Position numbers and translations under genes: made by a program
Notes under the pieces: model-generated
Databases searched by the model: none
Told to the model about the DNA's origin: nothing
Seen by the model: only the letters and a program-made list of their open reading frames with translations
Assembly (NCBI GenBank): GCA_964350265.1
Contig: CAYGJZ010000008.1
Location: 1,097-65,096 of the forward strand
Origin: an uncultured Gammaproteobacteria bacterium
GTDB taxonomy: Bacteria; Pseudomonadota; Gammaproteobacteria; Arenicellales; CAJQKF01
Length of the DNA stretch: 64,000 bases
Direction: 5' to 3'
Shown here: piece after piece, positions 37,396 through 63,504 of the stretch
How positions within the stretch are numbered: the first letter of the stretch is position 1
How the letters are laid out: each line of letters opens with the position of its first letter

Positions 37396-37434
37396 GACAA
37401 GACGGGCGCGTCTACACGGGAGAACGAGGAAAGC

Positions 37435-38445: not shown

Positions 38446-38502
38446 ACCGCGTTCACGGCCCGCGCCGGACGCTACACCCGAAGACCCCGACCCGAGAACA
38501 GC

Positions 38503-39600: not shown

Positions 39601-39624
39601 CCACGACGCGACTACGGTGACCCC

Positions 39625-41142: not shown

Positions 41143-41178
41143 CCCGGTGACCACGTTCCTTCCCCGCTGCCCGCGCCG

Positions 41179-41886: not shown

Positions 41887-41957
41887 GCGGCGTGCCGGCA
41901 CGTCGGGGGGTGTTTCGGCGACTGCGCTGGCTGGGTCTTCGCCGGCGTCATCCGGTG

Positions 41958-44860: not shown

Positions 44861-44884
44861 CCTTGAGTCCGGGCAGCGGACCCG

Positions 44885-45946
44885 TTGACGCCCGCCCGCG
44901 ACAAGGTGGTGGTGGTGTTCAGCCACCACAAGCGCGGCGGTGGCAAGCCGCTGGACTCGTTGTGGTTCTCCCGCGACGAGCTCAAGCGTCGACACGGCGT
45001 GGAACTGCGCTTCCCGTGGACCGGTTCGCCGCTGTCGAAAACCCTGCGCGAACTGTGGAGGGCCGACTACGTGCTGTTCGACGGCGTCTGGAGCGCCGTG
45101 CTCTGGCACGGCCCCGCGCTGCTGCTGGCGGCACTGCTGCTGGGCAAGCGGCTGGTCTACTACTGGCATGAGACCGACTGGCACATCCGTGACCGTTGGC
45201 CCTATGACCGCTCGGTGCGGCGCAGCGGCCATCGCGGCAAGCAGTACCTCCGGCGCCTGCCGATGTACCTGGCCCTGCGCTGGCAGCGTTTCTTGCACCT
45301 GCACGTGACCGAGCATGGCTGCCGGTTACTGCGCGAAGTGGCCGGGGTGCGCGCCGACCGCATCCGCCTGTTACGCAACATGTCGCGTTCCGGCCAGTTC
45401 GAGAACCTGCCGGTGCCCGGCGACTACCTGCCCGGGCGCATCGTCGCCTGTGGTCACGTGAAGACCAACAAGCGTCCCGACCTGTTCGTGGAGATGGCGC
45501 GGCGCCTGGCGGATGACCCCGCCTACAGCTTCCAGTGGGTGGGACGCATCGATCCGGGCTTCGACGTCGATGCCCTGGTCGGCGGCGGCGAACTGGCCCG
45601 GCGCGTGCATTTCAGCGGCTGGACCGATGCCCCGTACCTGGAGATCGCCCGCGCCAACGTGTTCGTGCACACCTCGGAATTCGAGGCCATGCCCAAGGTG
45701 CTGATGGAGGCCCTGGCACTGGGCAAGCCGGTGGTGGCCTTCGCCGTGGGCGGCATTCCCGAACTGCTCGGCGAGCACGGCCGCACGGTACCCTTCGGCG
45801 ATGTCGATGCCCTGGTCGACGCGGTTCGCGCCAGCCTCCCGGAGATGGATGACGACCAGCAACGTCGCCGCCGTGCCTGGTACGACGCCGAGTTCACCGA
45901 GCATGCCTTTGCCGACCGTTTCGCCCGCATCCTGGCCACCGCGTGA
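44885..45946 (+). CDS. Glycosyltransferase, GT4 family (GT-B)
   Basis: VFVHTSEFEAMPKVLMEALALGKPVVAFAVGGIPELL is the E-x7-E region. The TTG start from the track is uncertain. Confidence 0.8.
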   Translation: MTPARDKVVVVFSHHKRGGGKPLDSLWFSRDELKRRHGVELRFPWTGSPLSKTLRELWRADYVLFDGVWSAVLWHGPALLLAALLLGKRLVYYWHETDWHIRDRWPYDRSVRRSGHRGKQYLRRLPMYLALRWQRFLHLHVTEHGCRLLREVAGVRADRIRLLRNMSRSGQFENLPVPGDYLPGRIVACGHVKTNKRPDLFVEMARRLADDPAYSFQWVGRIDPGFDVDALVGGGELARRVHFSGWTDAPYLEIARANVFVHTSEFEAMPKVLMEALALGKPVVAFAVGGIPELLGEHGRTVPFGDVDALVDAVRASLPEMDDDQQRRRRAWYDAEFTEHAFADRFARILATA

Positions 45947-47148
45947 ACCGGGCCCAGGCCAGTGCCGGACAGCCGCTGTACCTGGTGGTCGGCATCCGCA
46001 GCAATTTCGCCGAGCTGCTGGCCGACGGCCTGGCAACCGCCCGCAGGTACGGCTTCGCCCCGCGCATCGTCGACGTGGTGGAACTGGTGGAAGGCTGGAA
46101 GCCCTATCCCAACGACTGGGCGGCACTGGGCCTTGCCGACGACGTGCTGCGCATCGCCGACCGGGAGGCGTTTTCCGCGCTGGTGGCATCACCCGGCTTC
46201 CATCGCGCGGTGGTGCTGTTTCTCTACCTGCCCGATCGTCACCTGCGGCCGTTGTGGCGGCAGATGGCGGCGGCCGGTGCCCGGGTCGGCGTCATCGTCG
46301 CCGGGCCGGTGCCCACCGCGTCCTCGCTGCCCCGGGGGCGTTCCCCGCGTGCCGTGGCCGCGCGCGCATGGCTGCGCCTGAAGCGCCGGTTCAAGCCGCG
46401 CCCCGACTACTGGATCACCGCGGGTTCGGTATGCCGCAGTCTGTATGCCAGCTACTTTCGCAGCCTCGACGGGGTGGTGGAGATCCATGCCCACTCGCTG
46501 GACCACGAGCGACTGCGTCGGGCCGGGCCGGCGGCCGCCGAGTCCACCGGGGTGGTGTTTCTCGACCAGGGCTGGTTCTCGAAGCCGCGGCCGGACTTCC
46601 TCGACCCGTCGCGCTACCCGCCGATGGACGAGACCGCCTATGCGCGCGGCGTGCGCGGACTCCTCGAGCACCTGCGCAGCGCCGGTCAGCGGGTGGTGGT
46701 CTGCGCCCATCCCAAGGCCAGCCTGGCGCACACCCGCTCGCTGTTCGACGGCTTCGACGTGCGCCAGGGCAACACCGCCGGGCTGGTCAGCGGCGCGCGC
46801 CTGGTGATCGCCCATTCCACCACCGCCATCGGCCACGCGGTCATGCACCGGGTGCCGGTGCTGCTGTTCGACAGCGCCGCGCTGCGCACCTCCATCGTGG
46901 CGCCGCTGCTGGCCGGCTACCGGCGCGAGCTCGGCCTGGCCACGGTGGCGCTGGACGAACCGGCCAGCTACGACCGGTCGGTGGCTGCCGCGGTGGTCGA
47001 CGATGCCGCCTATGACCGCTACCTGGACCGCTACGTGAAGCAGGCCGACTCCCCGGACGCCGGCCTGTGGGACATCGCCTTCGGCGGTCTTCGCCGTGCC
47101 CTCGACGCGCCGGCGCCGGCGGCGGCCCATCGATCCCGACAAGCCTGA
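45943..47148 (+). CDS. Hypothetical protein with an HP-motif C-domain (capsule-synthesis / TagF-like transferase candidate)
   Basis: The GTG start overlaps the upstream stop (GTGA). The segment VVFLDQGW...RVVVCAHPKASL...ARLVIAHSTTAIGHAVMHRVPVLLF resembles the catalytic half of HP-motif GT-B enzymes. I recognise no family with confidence. Confidence 0.55.
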   Translation: MNRAQASAGQPLYLVVGIRSNFAELLADGLATARRYGFAPRIVDVVELVEGWKPYPNDWAALGLADDVLRIADREAFSALVASPGFHRAVVLFLYLPDRHLRPLWRQMAAAGARVGVIVAGPVPTASSLPRGRSPRAVAARAWLRLKRRFKPRPDYWITAGSVCRSLYASYFRSLDGVVEIHAHSLDHERLRRAGPAAAESTGVVFLDQGWFSKPRPDFLDPSRYPPMDETAYARGVRGLLEHLRSAGQRVVVCAHPKASLAHTRSLFDGFDVRQGNTAGLVSGARLVIAHSTTAIGHAVMHRVPVLLFDSAALRTSIVAPLLAGYRRELGLATVALDEPASYDRSVAAAVVDDAAYDRYLDRYVKQADSPDAGLWDIAFGGLRRALDAPAPAAAHRSRQA

Positions 47149-47177
47149 GCAACGAAACCGGCTGGAACCCCGACGAC

Positions 47178-48083
47178 ATGACCCAATCCACCATTCCCCC
47201 CTGCCAGATCTGCGGCCACCGCGACTTTCAACCGCACTACAGCGGCCCGGTGCGCGACGGGCGCTTCGGCAACAGCGTCGACGACGCGGTGGTGCGCCGC
47301 TGCGGCGGCTGCGGCGTGCTGCGCCTGGACGAGGCGTTCTGCATGGACGACGGCGACTACGAGACGCCGGCCTACCGTGCCCTGATCGGCCAGCAGATCG
47401 ATGCCGGCAGCTACTACGAGGGGCACGATGCGCTGCAGTACTTCTCCCTCGGTGCGTTCTGGCCGCGCGGCTTTCGCGGCCGCACGGTGGCCGACGTCGG
47501 CGCCGCCGGCGGCAGCTTCCTCGACAGCGTCGCCGGCATGGCCGAGGGCGCCATCGCCATCGAGCCCTGCCGCGCCTACCACGAGACCCTGGCCTCGCGC
47601 GGCTACGACGTCTATGCCTATGCCGCCGAAGCCGCCGCCAGCCGACCGGGCAGCGTCGACGTCGCCACCAGCTTCCAGGTCATCGAGCATGTCGGCAATC
47701 CACGCCGCTACCTGGAGGAGATCCGTCCGCTGCTGAAGGACGACGGCACGCTGATGATCAGCACGCCCAATCTCGACGACATCCTGCTGCGCACCGCGCC
47801 GGATACCTATGCCGGTTTCTTCTACCGCGTGGTGCACCGCTGGTACTTCGATGCCCGCGCACTCAGTCACTGCGCGGAACTGGCCGGCTACACGGTCAGC
47901 GCGGTGAAGTACGTGCACCGCTATCCCTTCGCCAACTACGTGCACTGGCTGCGCGACGGCCGTCCCCGTGGCCAGGACGCCATCGCCGAGTTCGATGCCG
48001 GCGCCGACGGCTTCTGGCGCGGCTACCTGGAGCAGAAGGGACTGTCCGACACGCTGTTCCTCGAATGCCGGCCATCCACGTGA
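47178..48083 (+). CDS. Class I SAM-dependent methyltransferase with an N-terminal zinc ribbon
   Basis: CQICGH...RRCGGCGV is a CxxC...CxxC ribbon. VADVGAAGGSFL is motif I. DVATSFQVIEHV is also present. The ATG at 47178 lies inside track ORF 47067..48083. Confidence 0.8.
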   Translation: MTQSTIPPCQICGHRDFQPHYSGPVRDGRFGNSVDDAVVRRCGGCGVLRLDEAFCMDDGDYETPAYRALIGQQIDAGSYYEGHDALQYFSLGAFWPRGFRGRTVADVGAAGGSFLDSVAGMAEGAIAIEPCRAYHETLASRGYDVYAYAAEAAASRPGSVDVATSFQVIEHVGNPRRYLEEIRPLLKDDGTLMISTPNLDDILLRTAPDTYAGFFYRVVHRWYFDARALSHCAELAGYTVSAVKYVHRYPFANYVHWLRDGRPRGQDAIAEFDAGADGFWRGYLEQKGLSDTLFLECRPST

Positions 48084-48120
48084 CCGGCGCCCGTTTCCAC
48101 CCGACCCCTGGGAGCTTGTC

Positions 48121-48891
48121 ATGAAGGTGGTTTTCCTGGCCGGCGGTTTCGGCACCCGGCTCGCCGAGTACACCGACGTGGTGCCCAAGCCGATGGTGAA
48201 GGTTGGGCCGTATCCCATCCTGCAACACATCATGCGGCGCTATGCACGCTACGGGCACAAGGATTTCTTCGTCGCGCTGGGCTACAAGGGCGAGGTGATC
48301 AAGGAGTACTTCCTGAACTACCATGCCCTCGGCTCGGACTTCACCGTGCATCTTGGCAGCGGCAGCGTCGACTACCACGACAGCCAGTCGCTGGACTGGA
48401 ACGTCACCCTGGTGGAAACCGGCGCGAAGTCGATGACCGGTGGACGGGTAGGGCGGATGCGACGCTGGGTCGAGGACGGCACCTTCATGATGACCTACGG
48501 CGACGGCGTCGCCGACATCGACATCGACGCCCTGCTGGCCTTTCACCGCAGCCACGGCAAGCTGGTCACGGTCACCGCGGTACGACCCACCGCCCGCTTC
48601 GGCGACCTCACCCTGGCCGAGGACGAGGTGCGTTCCTTCGCCGAGAAGCCACGCATGACCTCGGGCTGGATCAACGGCGGCTTCTTCGTCATGGAGCCGG
48701 CGTTTCTCGACTACATCGATGACGATGCCACGGTGCTGGAGAAGGAGCCGCTGGAGCGAGCCGCCCGCGAGGGCCAGTTGATGGCCTACCGCCACGAAGG
48801 ATTCTGGCAGTGCATGGACACCAAGCGCGACCACGACCTCCTGTGCCGGCTGTGGGCGAGCGGCGAGGCGCCCTGGGACAGCGGCGCATGA
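48121..48891 (+). CDS. rfbF: Glucose-1-phosphate cytidylyltransferase
   Basis: MKVVFLAGGFGTRLAEYTDVVPKPMVKVGPYPILQHIM...MTYGDGVADIDI...EKP...GWINGGFFV...GFWQCMDTKRD is canonical RfbF/DdhA. A GGGAG lies upstream of the ATG at 48121. Confidence 0.92.
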   Translation: MKVVFLAGGFGTRLAEYTDVVPKPMVKVGPYPILQHIMRRYARYGHKDFFVALGYKGEVIKEYFLNYHALGSDFTVHLGSGSVDYHDSQSLDWNVTLVETGAKSMTGGRVGRMRRWVEDGTFMMTYGDGVADIDIDALLAFHRSHGKLVTVTAVRPTARFGDLTLAEDEVRSFAEKPRMTSGWINGGFFVMEPAFLDYIDDDATVLEKEPLERAAREGQLMAYRHEGFWQCMDTKRDHDLLCRLWASGEAPWDSGA

Positions 48892-49808
48892 TCGAGCCGG
48901 GCTCACGCCTGCTGGTGGTCGGCGGCGAGGGATTCATCGGCGGCGAGGTTGCGCGCCAGGCGCGCGACGCCGGGGTGGAGACCACGGTGCTGTCGCTGCG
49001 ACCGCGCGCCGACGGCGACCGTCACCGCCTGTACGCCGACATCACCGACGCCGGGGACCTGGCCAGGGCACTGGACGGTCGCGAGTTCGACTACGTGGTC
49101 AATGCCGGTGGCTACATCGACCACGCCGCCATGCACGCGGGCGGGCTGGTGCCGCTGGCGGCCCACTTCGGCGGCGTGGTCAACCTGGTCGGCGCGGTGC
49201 GAGGCCCGGCATTGAAGGGCTTCGTGCAACTGGGCAGCAGCGACGAGTACGGCGATGCGCCCGCGCCCCAGCGCGAATCCATGCGCGAGCAGCCGATCTC
49301 CTGCTATGCCGCCGCCAAGGTGGCCACCACCCAGTTGCTGCAGATGCTGCACCGGACCGAGGGCTTCCCGGCCACCGTGCTGCGCCTGTTCCTGGTCTAC
49401 GGTCCCGGACAGGGCACCGCCCGCTTCCTGCCGCAGGTGATCCGTGGCTGCCTGTCCGGCGATTCCTTCCCGGTATCGGCGGGGGAGCAGCTGCGCGACT
49501 TCGCCTATGTCGGCGACGTCGCCAAGGCCATTTTCCAGGCGCTGGCCGGCGACCGGGCCCGTGGCCGGGTCGTCAACGTCGGCGGCGGCGAGCCGGTGGC
49601 CATTCGCGCCATGGTGGAGCGGGTGGTGGCGCTGGTCGGTGCCGGCCGCCCGCGCTTCGGCGAGATTCCCTACCGGGCCGGCGAGAACATGGCGCTGTAC
49701 CCGTGCACCCGGCTGGCCAGGGAAGTCCTGCACTGGCAGGCGAGCACCTGCCTCGACGACGGCCTGGCGCGCACCATCGGCGCCCTGCGGCAGGCGGGGC
49801 ATGGCTAG
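48888..49808 (+). CDS. NAD(P)-dependent sugar epimerase/reductase (extended SDR)
   Basis: LLVVGGEGFIGGEV is the GxxGxxG motif and SCYAAAK is YxxxK. An ATGA overlap links it to rfbF. Confidence 0.8.
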   Translation: MIEPGSRLLVVGGEGFIGGEVARQARDAGVETTVLSLRPRADGDRHRLYADITDAGDLARALDGREFDYVVNAGGYIDHAAMHAGGLVPLAAHFGGVVNLVGAVRGPALKGFVQLGSSDEYGDAPAPQRESMREQPISCYAAAKVATTQLLQMLHRTEGFPATVLRLFLVYGPGQGTARFLPQVIRGCLSGDSFPVSAGEQLRDFAYVGDVAKAIFQALAGDRARGRVVNVGGGEPVAIRAMVERVVALVGAGRPRFGEIPYRAGENMALYPCTRLAREVLHWQASTCLDDGLARTIGALRQAGHG

Positions 49809-50664
49809 CCATGCCCGGGAACGCCATCGGCGCGCGACGGAGCGGCCGGAAGTGTCCATCCTGGTCAACGGCTACAACGGCGAGCGCTACCTCGGCGAGG
49901 CCCTGGACAGCGTCCTCGCGCAGACCTTCGGCGACTGGGAGCTGGTCTTCTGGGACAACCAGTCCACCGACGGCACCGCCGACATCGTGCGGGCCGCGGA
50001 CGATGCGCGTATCCGCTACCACTACGCGCCGAGTCATACCCACCTCGGCGCCGCCCGCCGGGCCGCGCAGGGCTTGCTGCGTGGCCGCTGGATTGCCATC
50101 CTCGACGTCGACGACCTGTGGCGGCCGGACAAGCTGCGAAAGCAGCTCGCCGCCGCCGCCGCGATGCCGGGCGCGGGCTTCGTCTATGCCCAGGTCGCGG
50201 TGCGCGACGAGTCCGGCGGCGATGCCGCCCGCGACCACGTGTTCAGCCGCATGGCCGGGCAGGAACTGCCCTCCGGCAACCTGTATCCTCGGCTGCTGCG
50301 CGGCAACTTCATCAGCGTACCCTCGCTGCTGCTGGATGCCGGGGCCTTTTTCGAGGTTGGCGGCTTTTCCGGTCGCTACCCGGTGATGGAGGACTACCGC
50401 ATCACCCTGAACATCGCCCGCCGCTACCCGGTGGCGGTGGTCAACGAGCCGTTGTGCGAATATCGGATCCATGGCGGCAACCGCTCCGCGGGCGGCGCCA
50501 TCGACAATTTCGAGGACCTGGCCATCCTGCGCGAGCTGCTGCCGGATCGTCGCGCGGCCATGGCCATGCCCAGGGTCGTTGCCCGGCACTTCCTGCGCTG
50601 CGCCAGGGAGCGCCGCTGGCCGCGCTTCGGTGGCCTGCTCGGGGCCATGGCGCGGCCATCGTAG
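49801..50664 (+). CDS. Glycosyltransferase, GT2 family
   Basis: VSILVNGYNGERYLGEALDSVLAQTF, WELVFWDNQSTDGT and ILDVDDLW (the DxD region). The ATG at 49801 overlaps the upstream gene by 8 nt. Confidence 0.85.
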   Translation: MASHARERHRRATERPEVSILVNGYNGERYLGEALDSVLAQTFGDWELVFWDNQSTDGTADIVRAADDARIRYHYAPSHTHLGAARRAAQGLLRGRWIAILDVDDLWRPDKLRKQLAAAAAMPGAGFVYAQVAVRDESGGDAARDHVFSRMAGQELPSGNLYPRLLRGNFISVPSLLLDAGAFFEVGGFSGRYPVMEDYRITLNIARRYPVAVVNEPLCEYRIHGGNRSAGGAIDNFEDLAILRELLPDRRAAMAMPRVVARHFLRCARERRWPRFGGLLGAMARPS

Positions 50665-50749
50665 GAACTTGAGGACAGGGTCGGCCGGTGCGCCGGGCGT
50701 GGTCAGCATTTCTTTCAATCGTTCATCGAGGTGAACCGGATAACGTGTT

Positions 50750-51619
50750 ATGAGTAAACAGGTAATCGTAGGCGGTGGCGCGGTGCGCACCGCGCAGATC
50801 GGTGGCACCGACAAGTTGTGCATCATCGCCGGCCCGTGTGCCATCGAGAGCGAGTCGCACGCCCTGGAAATGGCCGAGCGGATCGCCGAGATCACCGAGC
50901 GGGTGGGTGTTTCGCTCATCTACAAGTCCTGCTTCGACAAGGACTGCCGCTCGTCGCCGGATTCCTTCCACGGCTGCGGCATCGACTCGGGCCTGGGCAT
51001 CCTGGAGAAGGTCCGCCAGCAGGTCGGCGTGCCGGTGGTGACCGACGTCAGCAACGTCGAGTGGGTGGATCGCACCGCCGAGGTGGTGGACATGCTGCAG
51101 ATTCCCGCCTACCTGTGCCGACAGACGCACCTGCTGCGCGCCTGCGCCCGCACCGGCAAGCCGCTGCACCTGAAGAAGGGCCAGTTCATGAACCCGCGCA
51201 ACATGAAGAACTCGCTGGCCAAGATCTACCGCGAGGACAACCAGCAGGTGGTGCTGTGCGATCGCGGCACCTTCTTCGGCTACGAGGACCTGGTCAACGA
51301 CATGCGCTCGTTGATCATCATGCGCGAACTGGGCACCCCGGTCAGCTACGATGCCACCCACTCCATCCAGCAGCCCACCGGCAGCGGCAGCGTTTCCCAG
51401 GGCCTGCGCGAGTTCATCCCGGCACTGGTGCGGGCGGCCTGCGGCGTCGGCGTCGATGCCATCTTCATGGAAGTGCACGACAATCCCAACCGCGCGCTCA
51501 GCGACCCGGCCACCCAGCTCGACATCCGGTTTCTCGAGAACATCCTGCGCCAGGCGGTGGACATCTCCGCGGTGATGCGCGAAACGTCGCGCAACCATCC
51601 CACCGAAGGCCTGTCCTGA
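50750..51619 (+). CDS. KdsA-like 3-deoxy-ulosonate-phosphate synthase (Cys-type, divergent substrate motif)
   Basis: It aligns with E. coli KdsA along its whole length (from memory): IIAGPCAIES, FDKDCRSS, VVTDV, LQIPAYLCRQT, LKKGQF, DATHSIQ and FMEVHDNP. Confidence 0.85.
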   Translation: MSKQVIVGGGAVRTAQIGGTDKLCIIAGPCAIESESHALEMAERIAEITERVGVSLIYKSCFDKDCRSSPDSFHGCGIDSGLGILEKVRQQVGVPVVTDVSNVEWVDRTAEVVDMLQIPAYLCRQTHLLRACARTGKPLHLKKGQFMNPRNMKNSLAKIYREDNQQVVLCDRGTFFGYEDLVNDMRSLIIMRELGTPVSYDATHSIQQPTGSGSVSQGLREFIPALVRAACGVGVDAIFMEVHDNPNRALSDPATQLDIRFLENILRQAVDISAVMRETSRNHPTEGLS

Positions 51620-51659
51620 ACCCCGTACAACGTCCAGACCGACGAGGTCCCAGAAGCGA

Positions 51660-52352
51660 ATGCGTACCGTACTGATTCCCGCGAAGAAGAAAAGCAAGCG
51701 TATCCCGAGCAAGAACCTGCAGATGCTTGGCGAGGTGTCGCTGATCGAGCGCTGCGTGATGAAGGTCATGAAGTGCAAGAACATCGACCGCATCGTGGTG
51801 GACACCGACTCGGAAGACGTCATCGCCATGTGCCAGCGCCATGCCGCCAGCGATTCGCGCGTCGAGGGCCGGCAACGCAGCACCGAACTGCTCGGCGACG
51901 ACGTCGGCACACCACAGCTTTGCGTGCACCTGCTCGAGCACGAGCCGACCATCGAGTTCCTCGGCATCATGCACAGCACCGCGCCGTTCCTGAAGGCAAG
52001 CACCATCGACAAGTGCATCGAGACCTTCGTCAGCGGCCGCAACGAGTACGACAGCCTGTTCACCGTCGAGGCGCTGCACGACTACCTGTGGAAGGATCGC
52101 CCGCTGAACTTCAACGTCGACTGCCGCACCAGCACCGACAATGTCGATCTCTACTACAAGCTGACCGGCGGTTTCTTCATGTCGACCCGCGGTCACATCC
52201 TGGAAACCAAGTCGTTCATCGGCAAGAACCCGATCATCTACCCGGTCGCGGTGCTCGAGTCGCTGGACATCAACTACCCCGATGAACTGGAACTTGCGCG
52301 CATGATCGAAGAGGGCCTGGCGGCCCGCGGCAAGTCCGAACTGGGAATGTAA
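51660..52352 (+). CDS. Second cytidylyltransferase (CTP_transf_3, KdsB/NeuA-like)
   Basis: LIPAKKKSKRIPSKNL and HSTAPFL match the family pattern. The protein is Lys-rich and the gene is visibly less GC-rich than its neighbours. Confidence 0.75.
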   Translation: MRTVLIPAKKKSKRIPSKNLQMLGEVSLIERCVMKVMKCKNIDRIVVDTDSEDVIAMCQRHAASDSRVEGRQRSTELLGDDVGTPQLCVHLLEHEPTIEFLGIMHSTAPFLKASTIDKCIETFVSGRNEYDSLFTVEALHDYLWKDRPLNFNVDCRTSTDNVDLYYKLTGGFFMSTRGHILETKSFIGKNPIIYPVAVLESLDINYPDELELARMIEEGLAARGKSELGM

Positions 52353-52354
52353 AC

Positions 52355-53023
52355 GTGAACGAGAAGATCAAGCAGTTGAACCCGTCGGTGGTCTACGACG
52401 TGATGACCTACGACATCAAGTGGCCCGGCCAGTTCATGCTCTCCAACGAGATCGGCCTGCGCACCGGCACCGCCATCTGCGGACGCGCCTTCACCGTGCA
52501 GGGCAAGTACACGCCGAACCGGCTGGCCGAGTACCGCGAACGCGCCGTGGTCATCGACATGCTCGAGGCCATGGAGGAGGGCGTGATCGAGGTGCTGCAG
52601 CCGAACTACACCGGCCCGCTCGGCTCCTGGGGTGATTTCACCGCCACCCTGGTCAAGCACTACGGCTGCGTCGGCGCGGTGGTGGATGGCAACACCCGCG
52701 ACCTGGCCGGCCTGCGCGAGATGAACTACCCGCTCTACTGCCGGGGCACCAGCCTGGTCAACGGCTTCGGCAGCGGCTGGCAGATCGACAACTTCCAGCA
52801 GGACATCATCATGCCCGGGCCGCTGGGCATGCCGGTCAACGTCTCGCCCGGCGACTACGTGGTCGGCAACGAGGACGGCGTGGTGATCGTGCCCGCGGAC
52901 ATCATCGACGACGTCGCCGGCCATGCCGCCAGGCGTCTCGCCCGCGAGGAAGAGCTGAAGGCGGAACTGGCCGGCGGCAAGCTCACCCGCGAGTACCTGA
53001 AGACCACCATCTTCGACTGGTAG
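52355..53023 (+). CDS. RraA-family protein (HMG-aldolase / oxaloacetate-decarboxylase-like fold)
   Basis: GSWGDFTATLVKHYGCVGAVVDGNTRDLAGLREMNYPLYCRG is the RraA family core. It has a GTG start 2 nt after the upstream stop. Confidence 0.75.
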   Translation: MNEKIKQLNPSVVYDVMTYDIKWPGQFMLSNEIGLRTGTAICGRAFTVQGKYTPNRLAEYRERAVVIDMLEAMEEGVIEVLQPNYTGPLGSWGDFTATLVKHYGCVGAVVDGNTRDLAGLREMNYPLYCRGTSLVNGFGSGWQIDNFQQDIIMPGPLGMPVNVSPGDYVVGNEDGVVIVPADIIDDVAGHAARRLAREEELKAELAGGKLTREYLKTTIFDW

Positions 53024-53039
53024 CCCCGGCAAGACCCCG

Positions 53040-54815
53040 TTGACGGAGGCGCCGACCACCGTCATCGACCTGGCCAGGCAGCCGCTGGCGGTGGCCGACG
53101 GGCGTCGCCTGGATGCCCTGGCCGCGGCCCACCGGCGGGACTTCGTCGACTTCGTCGACCGCCTGGTCGACCAGGACCAGCTGCGTCGAAGCGGCGCCTG
53201 GCTGGACTGGTGGGTCAGCGGAACCGCCAGCCGCCACTTCGAGCTGTCGCCGCTGTTCCGCCGCTTGATGCTGTTGCTGCTGTGCCGTGAGCGCCTGGCC
53301 GGGAGCGACGGCCCGGTGCGGGTGCGGGTGGACGATGGCGTGCTGGCCGGCCTGGTGCGCCAGTTGGCGCCGGCCGGGCGCGACCTGGTGGTGGTCGATG
53401 CCAGCCGTTCGGTGGGCGGCATGCTGCGCCGCCTGCGCGGCATCCTGTCGCCCTGGCGCTCGATGCTGCGTCTCGCCCTCGACGTCGTCGTCGTCCGTCT
53501 TTGCGCGCGGCTCGCCGGTGCCGGCCCGGCGCTGCCGGACATCTCCCCGCTGGTCCTGCTGGACAGTTTCTCGCTGCCGGCGGCGCCGGCCACGGATCGC
53601 TACTACCCGGGGCTGTCGGACTGCCTGCCCGCGGCGCTGGCCCGGCGTACCGTGCTGGTGCCGCAGTTTCACGGCTACCGTCCCGGCCAGTTGCCGGCGG
53701 CGGTGCGCGCCTTGGCGCGGGCGCCCGGGCCCTGCCTGCTCAAGGAACGCGTGCTCACCGCCGCTGATCTTGGCTGGGCCTTCGCCCACCTGTTGCGCCG
53801 GCGACGCATCCGCACGCGCGAGACCATGTTCGCGGGCATCGATGTCGCCGCCCTGGTGCGGGCCGACCTGCGCGCCCCGGCCGGCTTTCGCTGCGCCGTG
53901 CAGGGACTGCTCAACGCCCGCTTCGCCCATCGCCTGGCACGTCGCCAGGTGGCGGTGGAATGCGTCGTGGACTGGTTCGAGAACCACCCGCTGGACCGCG
54001 GCTGGAATGCCGGCTTCCGCACCGCCTTTGCCGCCGGGCAGGCGCCGCGCACGGTGGGCTACGTCGGCTACTATCCCTCCTTCGATGCCGCCCGCCCGAG
54101 CCGCGGCGAGGACCGTGCCGGGGTGTTGCCGGCGCGCCTGTGCGTGATGGGCGAGGCCATCGGCGGGGAACTCGACGAATTCCATGGCGCGCTGCCCTGG
54201 CGGGTGGGTCCGGCGCTTCGCTACCCGGCATTGTCGCGGCCGCTGGTCGCCGCGCCGGAAGCGGCCGGGACCGCGGGCGACGCGGTACTGGTGGTGCTGC
54301 CCTACGACGCCGGCCTGGCCGGCTTCCTGCTGGCGACGGTGGCCGAGGCGGCGCGCCACAGCCCGGCCACCTTCCTGGTGAAACCGCATCCGGCCAACCC
54401 GATGGCTGCGGCGCTGGCCGCGGTCACCGCAGCGCGGGACAACCTGCGCGCGCACCACGGCGCCCTGCAGGCCCTGGCCGGGCCCGGTGGGGTGGTCGTC
54501 GGTGGACCGGTGGCGACCTCCACGCTGGAGGTGCTCGCCCAGGGCGCCCGGTGCATTGCGCTGGCGCCGCCCGGCGAGCACTGGCGGCATCGGCCGCCAC
54601 GGGCCTTGCCCGACGGCGCGGTGCACACCTGCGACGATGCCGACTCGCTGCTGCGCGCGCTGGACGAGGTGCGCTGCGCGGACCCTTCCCGGGCCATGGA
54701 CGACCGCGCCGTTGCCGGCGTCGTCCGGGCCCGCTTCTTCGCGCCGGTAAATGACCGCGCGGCGCTGGCATTGCTCGGACTCGACGAGGAGTCCGGGTCG
54801 CCACCTGATCACTGA
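53040..54815 (+). CDS. Large hypothetical protein (591 aa) with a C-terminal HP-motif transferase-like domain
   Basis: The TTG start comes from the track and is uncertain. I recognise no family. The C-terminal AVLVVLPYDAG...FLVKPHPANP...GGPVATSTLEVLAQGARCIAL resembles the same HP-motif core seen in 45943..47148. Confidence 0.55.
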   Translation: MTEAPTTVIDLARQPLAVADGRRLDALAAAHRRDFVDFVDRLVDQDQLRRSGAWLDWWVSGTASRHFELSPLFRRLMLLLLCRERLAGSDGPVRVRVDDGVLAGLVRQLAPAGRDLVVVDASRSVGGMLRRLRGILSPWRSMLRLALDVVVVRLCARLAGAGPALPDISPLVLLDSFSLPAAPATDRYYPGLSDCLPAALARRTVLVPQFHGYRPGQLPAAVRALARAPGPCLLKERVLTAADLGWAFAHLLRRRRIRTRETMFAGIDVAALVRADLRAPAGFRCAVQGLLNARFAHRLARRQVAVECVVDWFENHPLDRGWNAGFRTAFAAGQAPRTVGYVGYYPSFDAARPSRGEDRAGVLPARLCVMGEAIGGELDEFHGALPWRVGPALRYPALSRPLVAAPEAAGTAGDAVLVVLPYDAGLAGFLLATVAEAARHSPATFLVKPHPANPMAAALAAVTAARDNLRAHHGALQALAGPGGVVVGGPVATSTLEVLAQGARCIALAPPGEHWRHRPPRALPDGAVHTCDDADSLLRALDEVRCADPSRAMDDRAVAGVVRARFFAPVNDRAALALLGLDEESGSPPDH

Positions 54816-54832
54816 CGAGGACGACGACACCC

Positions 54833-55942
54833 ATGGCAGACAAGCAACAGGCACTGTTCGGCGACGTGTTCCGCGGCCGCCGTGTGCTGATCACCGGGCA
54901 CACCGGCTTCAAGGGCAGCTGGCTTTGCCACTGGCTCGACCAGCTCGGCGCCAGCGTCACCGGGCTGTCCATCGACATCCCCACCGAGCCGGCCCACTTC
55001 GAGGTCTCCGGTCTGGCCGGCGCGCTTGCCGACCACCGCGGCGACGTCCGCGACATCGATGCCCTCGCCGACCTGGTGGCGCAGGCCAGGCCCGACTTCG
55101 TCTTTCATCTCGCCGCCCAGGCCCTGGTCAAGCGTTCCTACGACGACCCGGTGGGCACCCTGTCCACCAACGTGCTGGGCACCGCCAACGTGCTCGACGC
55201 GGTGCGACGGGCGGACCGGCCCTGCGTGCTGGTCTGCATCACCAGCGACAAGTGCTACGACAACGTGGAATGGATCTGGGGCTACCGGGAAACCGACCGG
55301 TTGGGCGGCGCCGATCCCTACAGCGCGTCCAAGGGCGCGGCGGAGCTGGCCATTCGCAGCTTCGTGGATTCCTACCTGCGCGGTGATTCGCCGGTGCGGG
55401 TGGGTGTGGGCCGCGCCGGCAACGTCATCGGTGGTGGAGACTGGGCCGCCGACCGGCTGGTGCCCGACTGCATGCGCAGCTGGGCGGGCGGTCGGCAGGT
55501 GGAGATCCGCCGGCCCGAGGCGACCCGGCCCTGGCAGCACGTGCTCGAACCGCTGAGCGGCTACCTGCTGCTGGCGCAACGGCTGCATGAAGATGCCGCG
55601 CTGCACGGCGAGGCCTTCAACTTCGGTCCCCACGGCGACAGCATCAACACCGTGCGCTCGGTGCTCGACGCCCTGTCCCACAACTTCGAGCAGGCGAGCT
55701 GGCACGACGTGTCCGCGGGTGAACATGCCCCCGAGGCGGGGCTGTTGAAGCTCAACTGCGACAAGGCCCTGGCCCATCTCGGCTGGCGCGCCACCCTGGA
55801 CTTCGACGAGACCATCGCCATGACCGCGCACTGGTACCGCCGGTACTACGGGGAAGGCGGCGACATGCGCGGCTTCACCCGGGAACAGGTCCACCGCTAT
55901 ACCGCCTTGGCCAGCGAGCGAGGCGCCTGCTGGACCCGTTGA
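54833..55942 (+). CDS. rfbG: CDP-glucose 4,6-dehydratase
   Basis: FRGRRVLITGHTGFKGSWLCHWL, FHLAAQALVKRSYDDP, TSDKCYDN, DPYSASKGAAEL and RAGNVIGGGDW are canonical RfbG/DdhB motifs. Confidence 0.92.
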   Translation: MADKQQALFGDVFRGRRVLITGHTGFKGSWLCHWLDQLGASVTGLSIDIPTEPAHFEVSGLAGALADHRGDVRDIDALADLVAQARPDFVFHLAAQALVKRSYDDPVGTLSTNVLGTANVLDAVRRADRPCVLVCITSDKCYDNVEWIWGYRETDRLGGADPYSASKGAAELAIRSFVDSYLRGDSPVRVGVGRAGNVIGGGDWAADRLVPDCMRSWAGGRQVEIRRPEATRPWQHVLEPLSGYLLLAQRLHEDAALHGEAFNFGPHGDSINTVRSVLDALSHNFEQASWHDVSAGEHAPEAGLLKLNCDKALAHLGWRATLDFDETIAMTAHWYRRYYGEGGDMRGFTREQVHRYTALASERGACWTR

Positions 55943-56871
55943 TGTCGACGCCGGAGTTGTCCATCGTCATCGTCAACTACAACCTGTCCGCCTCGCTGCG
56001 CGACTGCCTGGACTCCATTGGCCGATGCGGCGACCGGCTTGCCCGCGGCGTGTTCGAGGTGGTGGTGGTGGACAACCATTCCAGCGAGGCCGACTGGCCC
56101 GTGTTGCGCGAGGCCCTGCGCGATTCGCCGGTGCAGGTGCTGCAGCGGCAGGACAACGGTGGCTTCGGCGCTGCCTGCAATGACGGTGCACGGGTCGCCA
56201 AGGGGCGCCTGCTGTGCTTTCTCAATCCCGATACCCGGGTGCCGACGGACTTCGCCGAGGCCGCCATCGGCCACCTCGCTGCCACGCCATCGGCCATCGT
56301 CGGCCTGCGCACCCACCGTGGCCGCTGGCTCGACTACTCCGCCGGGCCGTTGCCCAACCTGCTGCTCGAGTGCCTCGGCGTGCTGCTGGTCGGCCGTTAC
56401 CTGGAGGCGGCCTGGATGCGCCTGCGCGGCCGGCTGCGCGGCGGCGTGCTGACCGTGGGATGGTGCATGGGTGCCTGCCTGTTCCTGCATCGCGACACCT
56501 TCGATGCCCTCGGCGGCTTCGACGAGGACTACTTCCTGTACTTCGAGGAAGTGGACCTGTGTCACCGCCTGCACGATGCCGGCGGCGTGGTGATCTACGA
56601 TCCCGACGCCGCCATCGAGCACGTCGGCGGTGCCGCCGGGCGGCGCGACTATGCCAGCTTCACCGAGCGCTTCTACCGCGGCAAGCAGACCTACTTCGCC
56701 AAGCGGCATGATGGCTGGCGCCGCCGCGCCGGCCTGGCCCTGGTGCGGGCACAGGTGCGTGCCCAGCAACTGGCCTGGTCCCTGCTCGGCGCCGGCGGCC
56801 ACCCGCGCGCGGCGGCCAAGCTGCGCGGCCTGGCCGCCGCGCTGGCCGTTTCGCCGTCGCAGGCACGATGA
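55942..56871 (+). CDS. Glycosyltransferase, GT2 family
   Basis: LSIVIVNYN, VVVDNHSSE, NGGFGAACNDG, FLNPDT and GACLFLHRDTFDALGGFDEDYFLYFEEVDLCHR. The ATG at 55942 follows the track's TTG at 55939. Confidence 0.88.
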   Translation: MSTPELSIVIVNYNLSASLRDCLDSIGRCGDRLARGVFEVVVVDNHSSEADWPVLREALRDSPVQVLQRQDNGGFGAACNDGARVAKGRLLCFLNPDTRVPTDFAEAAIGHLAATPSAIVGLRTHRGRWLDYSAGPLPNLLLECLGVLLVGRYLEAAWMRLRGRLRGGVLTVGWCMGACLFLHRDTFDALGGFDEDYFLYFEEVDLCHRLHDAGGVVIYDPDAAIEHVGGAAGRRDYASFTERFYRGKQTYFAKRHDGWRRRAGLALVRAQVRAQQLAWSLLGAGGHPRAAAKLRGLAAALAVSPSQAR

Positions 56872-57968
56872 ACCCAGACGTCGACATCAACCTGCTGTGC
56901 CTGCGCAGCGAGTCGCCCACCGGCATCGAGGCCTATGCCCGGGTGGTGATCGGCACCATCCCGCTGCCCGGCGACTGCCGGCCGCGGGTGTTTCTGCCCG
57001 AGGGGTTGGCGGTGGGAGAGGCGCTGGGAAGCGTGGCCGGCGAGGCAGGCGACCACCGCCACCTGCTGCGTCACCACCCGCGCCTGGACACGGTCCGCCT
57101 GCCGCGCAGGCCGACGGCACTGCGCATCCTGCGCGAGATGCTCTACCTGTCCTGGCGTTGCCGGTCGACCCCGGTGGTGCTGTCGGTGAACAACTTCGGC
57201 CCGCTGTTCGGCGGTCGTGGCCAGCGTCGTCTGGTGGTGGTGCACGATGTCTGGTTCCTGTCCGCGGCCTACAATGGTTCGCGCCTGGCGAAGTGGTTGT
57301 TCGCCCGGCTGATCCGCAGCCAGCTCCGCCGCACCCACCACGTGTTCACGCCCACCGAACATTCGCGCGAGGAGATCGTCCGCTACACCGGCTTCCCGCG
57401 CGCGCGCATCACGGTGACGCCGCTGCGCGTGGAGCAGGCGCCGCCAGCGGGCGAGGACGCCGGCTTCTTCCTGCTGGTGGGCTCGTCGCGGCCGAACAAG
57501 AACGTGCTCGCCGCGGTGCGTGGCCATGCCCGCTACCGCGCCGAAGGCGGTGTTCGGCCGCTGGTGATCATCGGTCCCTACGACGATGCCTTCCGCGCGC
57601 AGATCCTGGCCGAGGGCGACGGTGGCGTGGTCATCGCCGGCTACGTGAACGAAGCCGAGAAGTGGCGGCTGGTAGGCAGTTGCCACGCGCTCCTGTTTCC
57701 CTCCCTGTACGAAGGCTTCGGCATCCCGGTGATCGAGGCGCAGGCCATGGGGCGGCCGGTGCTGGTCTCCCGCGGCACCAGCTGCGAGGAACTGGCCGGC
57801 GACCACGGCGTGGTGGTGGACGGCAGCCGCGTCGAGGACATTGCCCGTGGCTGCCACGCGCTGGATCGCCTGGCACCCGTCGCGGTGACCGTTGGCGATG
57901 CGCAGGTCGGTGCCAGCGACGGCGGGCGGTGCATCGCCGGGCAGCTCTGCGCGGGGATCGAGCGATGA
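56868..57968 (+). CDS. Glycosyltransferase, GT4 family (GT-B)
   Basis: FFLLVGSSRPNKN and ALLFPSLYEGFGIPVIEAQAMGRPVLVS. An ATGA overlap links it to the upstream gene. Confidence 0.85.
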   Translation: MNPDVDINLLCLRSESPTGIEAYARVVIGTIPLPGDCRPRVFLPEGLAVGEALGSVAGEAGDHRHLLRHHPRLDTVRLPRRPTALRILREMLYLSWRCRSTPVVLSVNNFGPLFGGRGQRRLVVVHDVWFLSAAYNGSRLAKWLFARLIRSQLRRTHHVFTPTEHSREEIVRYTGFPRARITVTPLRVEQAPPAGEDAGFFLLVGSSRPNKNVLAAVRGHARYRAEGGVRPLVIIGPYDDAFRAQILAEGDGGVVIAGYVNEAEKWRLVGSCHALLFPSLYEGFGIPVIEAQAMGRPVLVSRGTSCEELAGDHGVVVDGSRVEDIARGCHALDRLAPVAVTVGDAQVGASDGGRCIAGQLCAGIER

Positions 57969-60075: not shown

Positions 60076-60136
60076 ATGCACGGTCTTCCCCCGCGTTGTT
60101 CCTTCACCTGTCACGCCCTATCCCTGCAGAAGTTTC

Positions 60137-63434: not shown

Positions 63435-63504
63435 GATGTTGCCGTGGGTTGCGAAATCGGGCCGGCCAGGCACGCGGCGCTGACGGCGGGGGCATTGTAA
63501 GTTG

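Follow-up and report, generated by a model that had tools for sequence, protein, structure and literature searches.

Organization of the locus

The window is the whole stretch of DNA analyzed here and is 64 kb in length. Five consecutive genes, termed A to E, are found on its forward strand. These and the neighboring features referred to below are:

39601–41886, module 1, a nonulosonic-acid (NeuB/NeuA) module in the same operon as A-B-C
47968–48891, + strand, glucose-1-phosphate cytidylyltransferase (RfbF, TIGR02623), upstream of A
48810–49808, + strand, extended SDR with a Pfam Epimerase domain, upstream of A
about 49804–50664, + strand, GT2 (Pfam GT2 domain), directly upstream of A
50750–51619, + strand, gene A, 289 aa, KdsA-family PEP/aldose-phosphate condensing enzyme of the metal-dependent type
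51660–52352, + strand, gene B, 230 aa, NeuA-like cytidylyltransferase, a putative CMP-ulosonate synthetase
52355–53023, + strand, gene C, 222 aa, GTG start, long-form RraA-like protein
53040–54815, + strand, gene D, 591 aa, Arg-rich, GT-B fold, without a Pfam family
54833–55942, + strand, gene E, CDP-glucose 4,6-dehydratase, immediately 3′ of D

The original prediction named A, B and C as a KdsA-like, a cytidylyltransferase and an RraA-like gene, and profile searches show that these identities are right. The genes are tightly packed, as was claimed, with gaps of 40 nt (A-B) and 2 nt (B-C); the C-D gap is 16 nt. The interval from 47.5 to 56.5 kb has no terminator-like site. Positions 46987–53301 and 50767–55949 are covered by contigs of runs that are labelled metatranscriptomic, which is weak evidence for an operon; the same runs hold contigs of 73–236 kb, which suggests DNA carry-over. 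A-B-C-D-E is part of a long operon, and the locus as a whole is a surface-polysaccharide locus of the Wzy/ABC type.

An arabinose-5-phosphate (A5P) isomerase was said not to accompany the genes. A SIS-domain protein (KdsD/KpsF) is indeed not found among the called open reading frames of the window or in eight related loci. KdsC, a KdsB-type gene and WaaA are likewise not found among the called open reading frames of the 64-kb window, nor in the eight related loci. The scan covered the window with the exception of about 58.9–59.8 kb, and five open reading frames are without a Pfam match (7779–9515, 9266–11650, 11424–13442, 19380–21239 and 20993–22447).

Conservation and rarity of the cassette

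In eight of eight distinct loci, A, B and C are adjacent and their order is unchanged, thus the conserved neighborhood proposed for these genes exists. The unit, however, is not a triplet but a five-gene cassette, A-B-C-D-E, which adds the GT-B transferase (D) and the CDP-glucose 4,6-dehydratase (E). C is followed by D in seven of the eight loci, and D by E in all six that extend far enough to show E. The cassettes lie in surface-polysaccharide loci of distantly related aquatic bacteria, and the loci range from 31% to 70% GC. The C subfamily is present in 2 of 185,579 species genomes, and only about 10 close homologues of C are found among 5.8 billion proteins.

The window and the L020 locus have a 16-gene colinear block in common, in which A, B and C are the best conserved genes (83, 76 and 80% identity, respectively, vs 38–73% for the others). 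From locus to locus, the pairwise identities of the A, B and C proteins rise and fall together (A-C, r = 0.89; A-B, r = 0.80).

Horizontal acquisition, as originally predicted, stands in one part: proteins that are 66–83% identical in hosts of 31–70% GC, and 16 genes colinear with the 45%-GC MAG “Marine bacterium B5-7”, are phyletic evidence of mobility. A recent arrival is not borne out by composition (see below). On balance, A-B-C appears somewhat more probably than otherwise to be the constant core of a five-gene cassette, rare and horizontally mobile, that makes a Kdo-like CMP-sugar tailored by enolate/aldolase chemistry.

Base and amino acid composition

The dip in GC that was noted for the three genes is real. 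A (0.651), B (0.602) and C (0.661) are below the mean of the 41 window genes (0.690, sd 0.031), with z-scores of −1.25, −2.80 and −0.92, and no other gene of the 41 is as low as B. The GC of D is 0.745. The lysine counts are also as claimed, i.e. B has 15 Lys (14 Arg) and D has 2 (69 Arg). The use of Lys instead of Arg, however, holds only in part, with K10/R21 in A and K8/R12 in C.

A total GC of 0.60–0.66 against 0.69 for the window, with B the lowest gene, would be expected if A-C were a recently acquired compositional island. However, the dip is confined to codon positions 1 and 2. GC correlates with GC1+2 at 0.96 and with GC3 at −0.01. The GC3 values of A (0.907), B (0.874) and C (0.960) bracket the window mean of 0.891, and by synonymous-codon log-likelihood under the rest of the window, A ranks 6th, B 10th and C 1st of 41. 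Since GC3 and synonymous codon use match those of the host, composition shows no sign of recent transfer and the compositional case for it fails. In addition, the pattern of a low-GC B and a high-GC D repeats in the four related loci checked, which are of 31–58% GC. As it recurs whatever the GC of the locus, it stems from the proteins themselves. Amino acid make-up and not recent arrival thus accounts for the low GC of A-C. The flanking cluster genes are also colinear with the same foreign locus, thus the triplet did not arrive alone, and a compositional island is hardly credible here. A warning for such analyses is that genes with fully native codon usage can pass for a foreign island when amino acid composition lowers their GC.

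Gene A

The A sequence matches Pfam DAHP_synth_1 and scores above the KdsA equivalog cut-offs (NF003543, 342.3 bits, cut-off 242; TIGR01362, 336 bits, cut-off 314). Its best PDB match is the KDO8PS 6mdy (E = 3e-78). Residues C30, H204, E241, D252, K59, K64, K142, R172, R67 and R124 are common to A and three solved KDO8PS; the metal-type catalytic set (Cys, His, Glu, Asp), the PEP-binding Lys/Arg and the phosphate-binding Arg are kept. Metal-type KDO8PS is recognized by the Cys-for-Asn rule (PMC3052366).

These scores and conserved residues favor an ordinary supply of Kdo for an exopolysaccharide or capsule. A would then use A5P from a housekeeping KdsD to form Kdo8P, B would make CMP-Kdo, D would be the Kdo transferase and C a passenger or an accessory protein (a regulator or salvage lyase). 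Mutagenesis in the Parker laboratory reportedly gives the KANRS motif a role in A5P binding. In A this motif reads KDCRS (K64-D65-C66-R67-S68), and the clade-specific changes are A65D, N66C, R74H, H101S, S175F and G210T. KD[C/S]RS is found in 120 of the 120 closest homologues of A. In a 50%-identity library, KANR is present in 107 of the top 150 family representatives, and the Asn of KANRS in all 109 readable top representatives outside of the A clade. The clade has one full-length representative in this library (352 bits) and the next sequence scores 283 bits. By these alignments, the KD[C/S]RS enzymes form a tight, sharply bounded KdsA clade. Clade-wide replacement of the Ala-Asn of KANRS argues against the ordinary Kdo route.

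Gene B

B is a member of CTP_transf_3 (PF02348; 65.2 bits, gathering score 22.6). Its best full-length PDB match is mouse CMP-Neu5Ac synthetase (1qwj), over residues 4–208 (E = 4.5e-9); the alignment with KdsB is limited to the N-terminal ~60 residues. B is below every equivalog cut-off, e.g. PseF (59.8 vs 205.7) and kdsB (30.4 vs 155.2, N-terminus only). Canonical CMP-ulosonate synthetases display the nucleotide/metal motifs PARxGSK...KN, QxTSP and DID. B and its orthologues, which are 57–76% identical, read PAK(G/K)KSKRIPxKN, H(S/V)TAP and DIN, and these variants are conserved in the subfamily. In the window, 2 nt separate the stop of B from the start of C; in L001, L003 and L004, the two overlap or are 1 nt apart.

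A NeuA-like B, with a KdsB match of only ~60 residues, is a second argument against ordinary Kdo. Together with KD[C/S]RS in A and 120 of 120 closest homologues, it makes the originally predicted non-Kdo product plausible.

Other clusters with KD[C/S]RS enzymes

Sister clusters (L016–L019) have a KdsA of the KD[C/S]RS clade (58–59% identity) with an HpaI/GarL-type class II pyruvate aldolase in place of C. They also carry a cytidylyltransferase and large proteins without a Pfam match, one of which (L019_609) is a distant D homologue. KduD/mannonate-oxidoreductase-like SDRs are present instead of C. The sister clusters differ from the cassette in an aldolase of another fold (PF03328), two short-chain sugar-acid SDRs, a CBS protein derived from KpsF and a KdsB-like cytidylyltransferase; a CDP-glucose dehydratase, represented in the cassette by E, is absent in the stretch seen. 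The presence of an RraA-like or an HpaI-type partner with the same KdsA clade is a case of non-orthologous displacement.

In L013 and L026, the KD[C/S]RS enzyme is found with KdsB-like (254 bits) and KdsC-like genes among housekeeping genes; the gene order in L013 is A′-CBS-CT-KdsC. This setting suggests that the clade may still make ordinary Kdo8P, and it favors the ordinary Kdo reading. The KdsB-model score falls from 254 bits where there is no aldolase, to 183 in the HpcH clusters and to 42 in B. Recurrence of aldolase-type partners (HpcH) independently in the sister clusters argues against ordinary Kdo. C itself does not look like a passenger, since it matches A in conservation, retains its catalytic residues and is coupled to B in translation. 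Weighing both sides, the ordinary Kdo route is unlikely, although it is the most serious of the competing explanations.

Gene C

C is an RraA-like protein (PF03737; 74.2 bits vs 24.5). The AF2 model of C has a pLDDT of 87.6, and Foldseek places it close to PSPTO_3204 (3k4i), Yer010c (2c5q) and the HMG/CHA aldolase 3noj (TM 0.73–0.77, probability 1.00). R115, D116 and E198 of C align to Arg-123, Asp-124 and Glu-199 of 3noj and are invariant in 10 sequences. In HMG/CHA aldolase, Arg-123 is essential, and Asp-124 and Glu-199 are acidic metal-binding residues (PMC5065237). D94 is the counterpart of 3noj Asp-102 but is Gly in two C homologues. Judged from the alignment, the catalytic residues of class II pyruvate aldolases are retained in C (D94, R115, D116, E198). 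The subfamily also displays motifs of its own, NGFGSGWQ and K(T/K)(T/S)IF(D/E)W.

Two assignments of C were rejected. C is not a LigK/PcmE equivalog (67.7 bits vs 304.5), and its neighbors are glycan genes with no aromatic meta-cleavage context. It is not the RNase E regulator RraA proper, having 222 aa with a C-terminal helix vs ~160 aa in the short form; the TM to true RraA is only 0.50–0.56 (1q5x, 2yjv, 3c8o) and PRK12487 scores 15.9 bits vs 196.

The original prediction knew of no RraA-family protein in glycan pathways. The RraA fold is not foreign to 2-keto-3-deoxy sugar acids, as the RraA-fold enzyme FlDet acts on one of these and is a catabolic precedent (PMC8563752).

C may instead replace a missing pathway enzyme, i.e. 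the ulosonate-phosphate phosphatase or the supplier of the aldose phosphate. A HAD phosphatase and a SIS isomerase are not found in any of the eight loci, and C follows the cytidylyltransferase as KdsC does in L013, which would suit a phosphatase. In HMG/CHA aldolase, moreover, phosphate is bound and has an activating effect, and the structure is related to that of phosphohistidine domains (PMC5065237). On the other hand, no phosphatase or isomerase activity is known for the RraA-like fold, and the conserved residues of C are those of pyruvate-enolate chemistry. A role as the missing enzyme is very improbable.

Gene D

The AF2 model of D also has a pLDDT of 87.6. The 50 PDB matches listed by Foldseek are almost all GT-B glycosyltransferases, e.g. 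CalG1 (E = 5e-7), UrdGT2, BshA and MurG, and the best has a TM(target) of 0.56; the other GT-B-fold matches among those listed are UDP-GlcNAc 2-epimerases and one pseudo-glycosyltransferase. Sequence matches are weak, with TIGR04326 at 32 bits and DUF6716/Glyco_tran_28_C in homologues, and a profile search of PDB sequences with D gives marginal matches only. There is no sequence match of D to GT30, GT99 or GT107. D is 31–47% identical among six loci. K448-x-H450-P451 is invariant in the C-terminal half, and a D/E-D/E-G motif is not recognized in D. The HP motif of bacterial sialyltransferases binds CMP-Neu5Ac (PMC2169525). From its model, D is predicted to be a new GT-B glycosyltransferase and is a candidate transferase for the CMP-sugar.

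Gene E and the CDP-6-deoxyhexose branch

E scores 469.7 bits with TIGR02622 and its five orthologues 455–464 (cut-off 278.45). RfbF scores 353.5 bits with TIGR02623 (cut-off 300.25). The upstream RfbF, SDR and GT2 genes, with E, complete a CDP-6-deoxyhexose branch. These three genes are colinear in L020, where they are 55–73% identical. The window, L020 and L023 are the only loci with RfbF within 10 kb; at this distance, it is missing from L021 and from the visible part of the 12.6-kb L025 contig.

Another explanation is that C works with E, adding a pyruvate enolate to CDP-4-keto-6-deoxyglucose to give a sugar of the shewanellose type, with A and B separately supplying a Kdo-like sugar. Shewanellose is a C-branched acidic 6-deoxy sugar. 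HMG/CHA aldolases prefer ketone acceptors, thus an enzyme of this type could attack the 4-keto product of E. E follows D in six of six informative loci, at 455–470 bits, even without RfbF within 10 kb (L021, visible L025), and co-occurrence of C with E is as strict as with A and B, which counts against tying C to A and B. However, the gene to which C is coupled is B (the two overlap or are separated by at most 2 nt) and not E, and C and E are separated by D. The HpcH-aldolase sister clusters have no 4,6-dehydratase in the stretch seen, and an amidotransferase or other branch-tailoring gene is not conserved with the cassette. Joint action of C and E is quite improbable.

Proposed pathway

The probable role of the cassette is to form a Kdo-like acidic sugar, activate it and attach it. 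A would condense PEP and an aldose phosphate to a 3-deoxy-2-ulosonate phosphate; the fold and the PEP, metal and phosphate residues are those described above, and the aldose phosphate is conjectural. No phosphatase is encoded in the cassette, and one from outside of it would remove the phosphate. C, with the residues described, may apply Mg2+/Arg-stabilized pyruvate-enolate chemistry to the 4-hydroxy-2-oxo-acid end of the sugar. Its likeliest reaction would be a retro-aldol/aldol at C3-C4, i.e. C4 epimerization or pyruvate-dependent re-assembly; a FlDet-like dehydration is an alternative. B, as its family suggests, would make the CMP-sugar. D, with its GT-B fold and invariant H450-P451, would transfer this presumed donor to the repeat unit, which would also gain a CDP-derived 6-deoxyhexose from RfbF, E and the SDR.

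As to the product, a CMP-ulosonic acid not described before is put forward tentatively, at rather less than an even chance. A, as a KdsA paralogue with an altered aldose site, would use a sugar phosphate other than A5P, C would be a biosynthetic tailoring aldolase (C4 epimerase, C-C-forming or dehydrating) and the HpaI-type enzyme would play the same part in the larger, mostly marine sister set.

Significance

Ulosonic acids (Kdo, sialic, legionaminic and pseudaminic) shape the recognition of bacterial surfaces. To our knowledge, the known ulosonic routes use only a synthase, a phosphatase, a cytidylyltransferase and nucleotide-sugar tailoring enzymes, and we know of no RraA-family or aldolase-type enzyme of this kind previously linked to glycan synthesis. 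If the proposal is true, C is the first RraA-family enzyme in glycan biosynthesis. Recruitment of a class II pyruvate aldolase fold would represent a tailoring step of a new type, probably together with a new sugar, and this recruitment appears twice, RraA-like in the cassette and HpaI-like in the sister clusters. The proposal also offers a concrete, testable function for one subfamily of the widely mis-annotated RraA-like proteins. Annotation pipelines name the KD[C/S]RS clade “3-deoxy-8-phosphooctulonate synthase”, and the name may be wrong for some members.

Comparison with known systems

The Kdo pathway (KdsD-KdsA-KdsC-KdsB, then WaaA or KpsS/KpsC) follows the same logic as the cassette, with PEP-dependent condensation by a KdsA-family enzyme, CMP activation and a dedicated glycosyltransferase. 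Unlike that pathway, the cassette has KDCRS in place of KANRS, is without KdsD and KdsC, and has a NeuA-like enzyme and not KdsB. It adds an RraA-like enzyme, and its transferase is of a putative new GT-B family.

HMG/CHA aldolase (LigK/PcmE; 3NOJ), Yer010c and PSPTO_3204 have the fold and the Arg-123/Asp-124/Glu-199 equivalents in common with C. Identity to C is however ~23%, and C has its own motifs (NGFGSGWQ, KTTIFDW) and is located in a biosynthetic glycan operon.

FlDet, from an aquatic Flavobacterium that assimilates alginate, is an RraA-like dehydratase/decarboxylase of 2-keto-3-deoxy-hexarate (PMC8563752). It is likened to C by its described fold and substrate and shows that the RraA fold handles 2-keto-3-deoxy sugar acids. 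FlDet is catabolic, in an alginate pathway, whereas C is in a biosynthetic operon.

Nonulosonic modules (NeuB/NeuA; Pse/Leg), such as module 1 in the same operon, likewise have a large, unusual transferase-like protein after a CMP-transferase of the NeuA family. Their condensing enzyme is of the NeuB family and uses an unphosphorylated sugar, whereas that of the cassette is of the KdsA family with conserved phosphate-binding residues.

Organization of the cassette

The three open reading frames of the original prediction (A, B and C) are present in the ORF calls with the expected spacers of 40 nt (A-B) and 2 nt (B-C). D follows C after 16 nt. Family assignments for A to E are from Pfam and NCBIfam.

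Genes of the cassette
50750–51619, plus strand: A, KdsA-like, 289 aa; DAHP_synth_1; KdsA equivalogs at 342 bits (cut-off 242) and 336 bits (cut-off 314)
51660–52352, plus strand: B, NeuA-like cytidylyltransferase, 230 aa; CTP_transf_3 at 65 bits, under all equivalog cut-offs
52355–53023, plus strand: C, 222 aa, GTG start; RraA-like at 74 bits
53040–54815, plus strand: D, 591 aa; the sole family match is a weak TIGR04326
54833–55942, plus strand: E, directly after D; CDP-glucose 4,6-dehydratase at 470 bits (cut-off 278)

The genes lie in a single plus-strand polysaccharide locus that runs from ~32 kb to ~62 kb of the window. It starts with a DegT aminotransferase and a priming phosphoglycosyl transferase. 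Next is a first ulosonic-acid module (36076–43052, plus strand), which consists of a UDP-sugar dehydrogenase, a TviC-like epimerase, a Gfo/Idh/MocA oxidoreductase, a NeuB-like synthase, a PseF-like cytidylyltransferase and a 390 aa protein with no Pfam match. An MsbA/PglK-like ABC transporter, a GT4, a 401 aa no-Pfam protein and an ORF in the methyltransferase position (47067–48083) come thereafter, and RfbF (glucose-1-phosphate cytidylyltransferase), an SDR and a GT2 (49804–50664) are directly before A. Three more glycosyltransferases, an apparently GT-like stretch outside the family scan (~58.9–59.8 kb), a sulfotransferase and an EpsG-family polymerase follow E.

The NeuB-like synthase of the first module is 513 aa long with a ~170 aa C-terminal extension, and its 141 bits are far under the NeuB cut-off. 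The 390 aa protein is colinear with a protein of locus L002 marked “Lept_O_ant_chp1 (faint)”. With this protein after the first module and D after A-B-C, each ulosonic module is trailed by its own unusual large protein.

No terminator-like sites were found within 47.5–56.5 kb of the window, and the promoter/terminator scan shows no boundary around A-B-C. In runs labelled metatranscriptomic (X5, X6, X11 and X12; biofloc samples) the whole cluster is covered at flat depth (window 44000–60000). This was discounted as proof of co-transcription since contigs of 73–236 kb in these runs make carry-over of genomic DNA likely. The organism turns up repeatedly in metagenomes of biofloc and aquaculture, across several studies.

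The sulfotransferase of the window is at 59804–60952 (plus strand; Sulfotransfer_3, 94 bits). Others are found in L003 (5247–6095, between D and E) and, weakly, in L016. Sulfation of the polymer is possible. Just past the cluster (62886–63824, minus strand) is a 312 aa HAD (Hydrolase_3) protein, the sole phosphatase-like gene near the cassette, which is unlike KdsC in size and is not conserved at related loci.

The left half of the window is housekeeping: CoaBC, Fur, PepP, a YgfB-like protein, 6S RNA, 5-formyltetrahydrofolate (5-FTHF) cyclo-ligase, YmdB and HrpA.

24867–25048, plus strand: 6S/SsrS RNA (Rfam RF00013, 82 bits)

The 6S RNA is directly 5′ of the cyclo-ligase gene and slightly overlaps its stop-to-stop frame (from 25001), the ssrS-ygfA arrangement typical of Gammaproteobacteria; pepP and the YgfB-like gene are on the opposite strand just ahead of it. 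Three large high-GC3 ORFs (about 578, 794 and 672 aa) without a Pfam match occupy 7779–13442 (plus strand), with a subtilase (Peptidase_S8) gene directly downstream (13443–15122, plus strand).

Base composition

The triplet had been described as less GC-rich than its flanks. Compared across the 41 called genes of the window, total GC is indeed lower (A 0.651, B 0.602, C 0.661; mean 0.690, sd 0.031) and B is the minimum of all 41 (z = −2.8), with D second-highest at 0.745. However, the drop is confined to codon positions 1 and 2. GC3 is native (A 0.907, B 0.874, C 0.960; mean 0.891), as is synonymous codon usage: in fit to the frequencies of the remaining window, A is 6th, B 10th and C 1st of 41. 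A recent horizontally acquired island, as inferred from composition, is rejected on this basis. Across the window genes GC correlates with GC1+2 (0.96) and not with GC3 (−0.01). The same relative pattern, with B lowest and the Arg-rich D high, is seen at loci of 31%, 45%, 54% and 58% GC, and thus the dip in A-C is a property of the proteins and not a mark of recent arrival. The lysine counts noted earlier (15 in B, 2 in D) are exact, although the proposed use of Lys for Arg does not extend to A and C, where Arg still outnumbers Lys.

Conservation, rarity and mobility

Close homologues of C number about ten proteins among 5.8 billion. In a set of 185,579 species-representative genomes, the C subfamily is confined to two: “Marine bacterium B5-7” and one from an uncultured gammaproteobacterium, neither of them the organism of the window. 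One more locus was found among 241 million metagenome records. Assemblies with the cassette include GCA_030428515.1, BQJD01 (“Marine bacterium B5-7”) and CAMYOD01 (ES_M_Gamma_001). Eight distinct loci could be compared (window, L020/L002, L021/L001, L003, L004, L022, L023/24 and L025), some of which were reached via A homologues. A, B and C adjoin in the same order in all eight, and the triplet is therefore a conserved neighbourhood. A D-family gene follows C in seven; in L004 an unrelated protein takes its place, and a profile search ruled this out as a D homologue. E follows D in each of the six loci of sufficient length, in L003 with a sulfotransferase inserted. The conserved unit is thus larger than the triplet originally proposed and is a five-gene cassette, which is real, conserved and rare. 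From locus to locus, the pairwise identities of the three proteins A, B and C rise and fall together (r 0.68–0.89).

Sixteen consecutive genes are colinear between the window (41883–58831; 70% GC organism) and the “Marine bacterium B5-7” MAG (L020 56–16506; 45% GC), with amino acid identities of 38–83%. The best conserved are A (83%), C (80%) and B (76%) and the worst is D (38%). The codon usage of each copy matches its own host. What has been exchanged is the whole polysaccharide locus and not the triplet alone. Horizontal acquisition therefore stands in the sense of a colinear locus in a very different genome, but not as a recent arrival of the triplet: A-B-C-D-E travels between very different genomes inside larger polysaccharide loci, with full amelioration in every host.

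The KdsA-like protein and its clade

Over its full length A aligns with solved KDO8P synthases (45–50% identity) and retains the metal-type Cys, His, Glu and Asp, the PEP-binding Lys/Arg and the phosphate-binding Arg residues. The K-A-N-R-S of the solved enzymes is K-D-C-R-S in A, and each of its 120 closest homologues reads K-D-[C or S]-R-S (90 Cys, 30 Ser). In a library of representatives at 50% identity this clade is one full-length sequence at 352 bits, the next representative is at 283, and 107 of the best 150 representatives have K-A-N-R (one has GN, one SN, and the remainder are fragments). KANRS is reportedly invariant and contributes to the arabinose-5-phosphate site (mutagenesis in the Parker laboratory). 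Other clade-specific changes (R74H, H101S, S175F and G210T) cluster in loops closing over the aldose. A thus belongs to a deviant KdsA clade.

The clade, mostly marine and metagenomic, is found in at least three gene contexts. The first (L013/L026 8001–11553) is KdsA′-CBS-KdsB-like-KdsC-like-radical SAM/SPASM-TPR among housekeeping genes, the second (L016–L019) is that of glycan islands with an HpaI-type aldolase plus two sugar-acid SDRs, and the third is the RraA cassette. One rival explanation of the cassette is plain Kdo supply, with C as an accessory. The housekeeping setting of L013/L026, where the cytidylyltransferase is KdsB-like (254 bits) and a KdsC-like phosphatase is present, indicates that the clade may still make Kdo8P in some organisms. 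Members are also present in a genome of the candidate phylum “Uhrbacteria”, a phylum not known to make LPS. The absence of KdsD/KpsF noted beside the triplet is borne out, as no SIS-domain isomerase is found among the window ORFs with a family match; KdsC, a KdsB-type enzyme and WaaA were likewise not found among them.

The full-length best relatives of B are CMP-sialic acid synthetases (mouse 1qwj, E = 4.5e-9), and the match to KdsB spans only ~60 N-terminal residues. Within the clusters of this clade the cytidylyltransferase is further from KdsB where tailoring genes appear.

Cytidylyltransferase scores on KdsB models
No aldolase (L013): 254 bits
HpaI-type aldolase and SDRs (L016): 183 bits
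RraA-like C (A-B-C-D-E cassette): 42 bits

The falling score would suit an increasingly non-Kdo substrate. In B (51660–52352) and its orthologues the usual CMP-sugar synthetase motifs are also altered in a conserved way: PAK(G/K)KSKRIP for PARGGSKGIP, H(S/V)TAP for QxTSP, and DIN for DID.

The RraA-like protein

The AF2 model of C (pLDDT 87.6) matches the long RraA-like group (PSPTO_3204, yeast Yer010c, HMG/CHA aldolase 3NOJ and RraAS2) at TM 0.73–0.77, and true RraA proteins at only about 0.5. Aligned to 3NOJ, D94, R115, D116 and E198 of C correspond to Asp-102, Arg-123, Asp-124 and Glu-199. Ten sequences all retain R115, D116 and E198, and two of them have Gly at the D94 position. In HMG/CHA aldolase the pyruvate enolate is stabilised by Arg-123, an essential residue, and the metal is bound by the acidic Asp-124 and Glu-199; most RraA homologues with these motifs are probably class II pyruvate aldolases (PMC5065237). 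By this alignment C is catalytically competent at the residue level. A role as RNase E regulator was rejected, given the long form, the retained RD and Glu, the poor fit to true RraA and the glycan operon.

That C is a functional enzyme of the pathway is argued chiefly from sister clusters in a 27% GC marine alphaproteobacterium and the Uhrbacteria genome. Their KdsA enzymes belong to the same clade and are ~60% identical to A. They are accompanied by an HpaI/GarL-type aldolase (PF03328), two SDRs like D-mannonate oxidoreductase and KduD, a KdsB-like cytidylyltransferase, and a CBS protein that resembles the C-terminal half (CBS pair) of KpsF/KdsD but lacks the SIS isomerase domain. A 2010 JBC paper calls HpaI and HMG/CHA aldolases convergent class II pyruvate aldolases in its title (via PMC8563752). 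Two unrelated pyruvate-aldolase folds therefore occupy the same kind of slot beside this KdsA type. C would act on the 4-hydroxy-2-oxo-acid moiety common to all 3-deoxy-2-ulosonates. The RraA-like FlDet is a dehydratase/decarboxylase acting on a 2-keto-3-deoxy-hexarate (PMC8563752), thus the RraA fold does handle 2-keto-3-deoxy sugar acids.

Proteins D and E

D is fast-evolving, with 31–47% identity across six loci. It belongs to no Pfam family, and its homologues match DUF6716 and GT28-C marginally. Structures matching the AF2 model (pLDDT 87.6) are almost without exception of the GT-B fold and nearly always glycosyltransferases, and D is assigned at the level of this fold. Family and profile searches gave no sequence-level tie to sialyl-, Kdo- or KpsC-type transferases. 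An invariant K-x-H-P follows a strand in the C-terminal Rossmann half and is, by sequence, a candidate counterpart of the HP motif with which bacterial sialyltransferases bind their CMP-sugar (PMC2169525).

Profile scores identify E unambiguously as a CDP-glucose 4,6-dehydratase at each of the six loci. In the window E, RfbF and the SDR form a CDP-6-deoxyhexose branch. RfbF is absent within 10 kb in L021 and from the visible part of the 12.6-kb L025 contig, which would allow for a more unusual function of E. A second rival explanation is that C works with E in building a C-branched 6-deoxy sugar.

Proposed pathway

A would make a 3-deoxy-2-ulosonate phosphate, possibly other than Kdo8P, and a phosphatase from outside the cassette would act on the product. 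A third rival is that C stands in for the missing phosphatase. In the favoured pathway C would instead remodel the sugar by enolate chemistry, perhaps by retro-aldol/aldol epimerisation at C4. This is favoured because epimerases with an aldolase fold are a precedent and HpaI-type enzymes have poor C4 stereocontrol. A FlDet-like dehydration is the alternative. B would then activate the sugar and D would transfer it.

A glycan pathway with KdsA and RraA, or KdsA and HpcH, was not found described in the literature searched. The cassette is a new variant of ulosonic-acid biosynthesis, in which the RraA-fold enzyme C is the feature of greatest interest.
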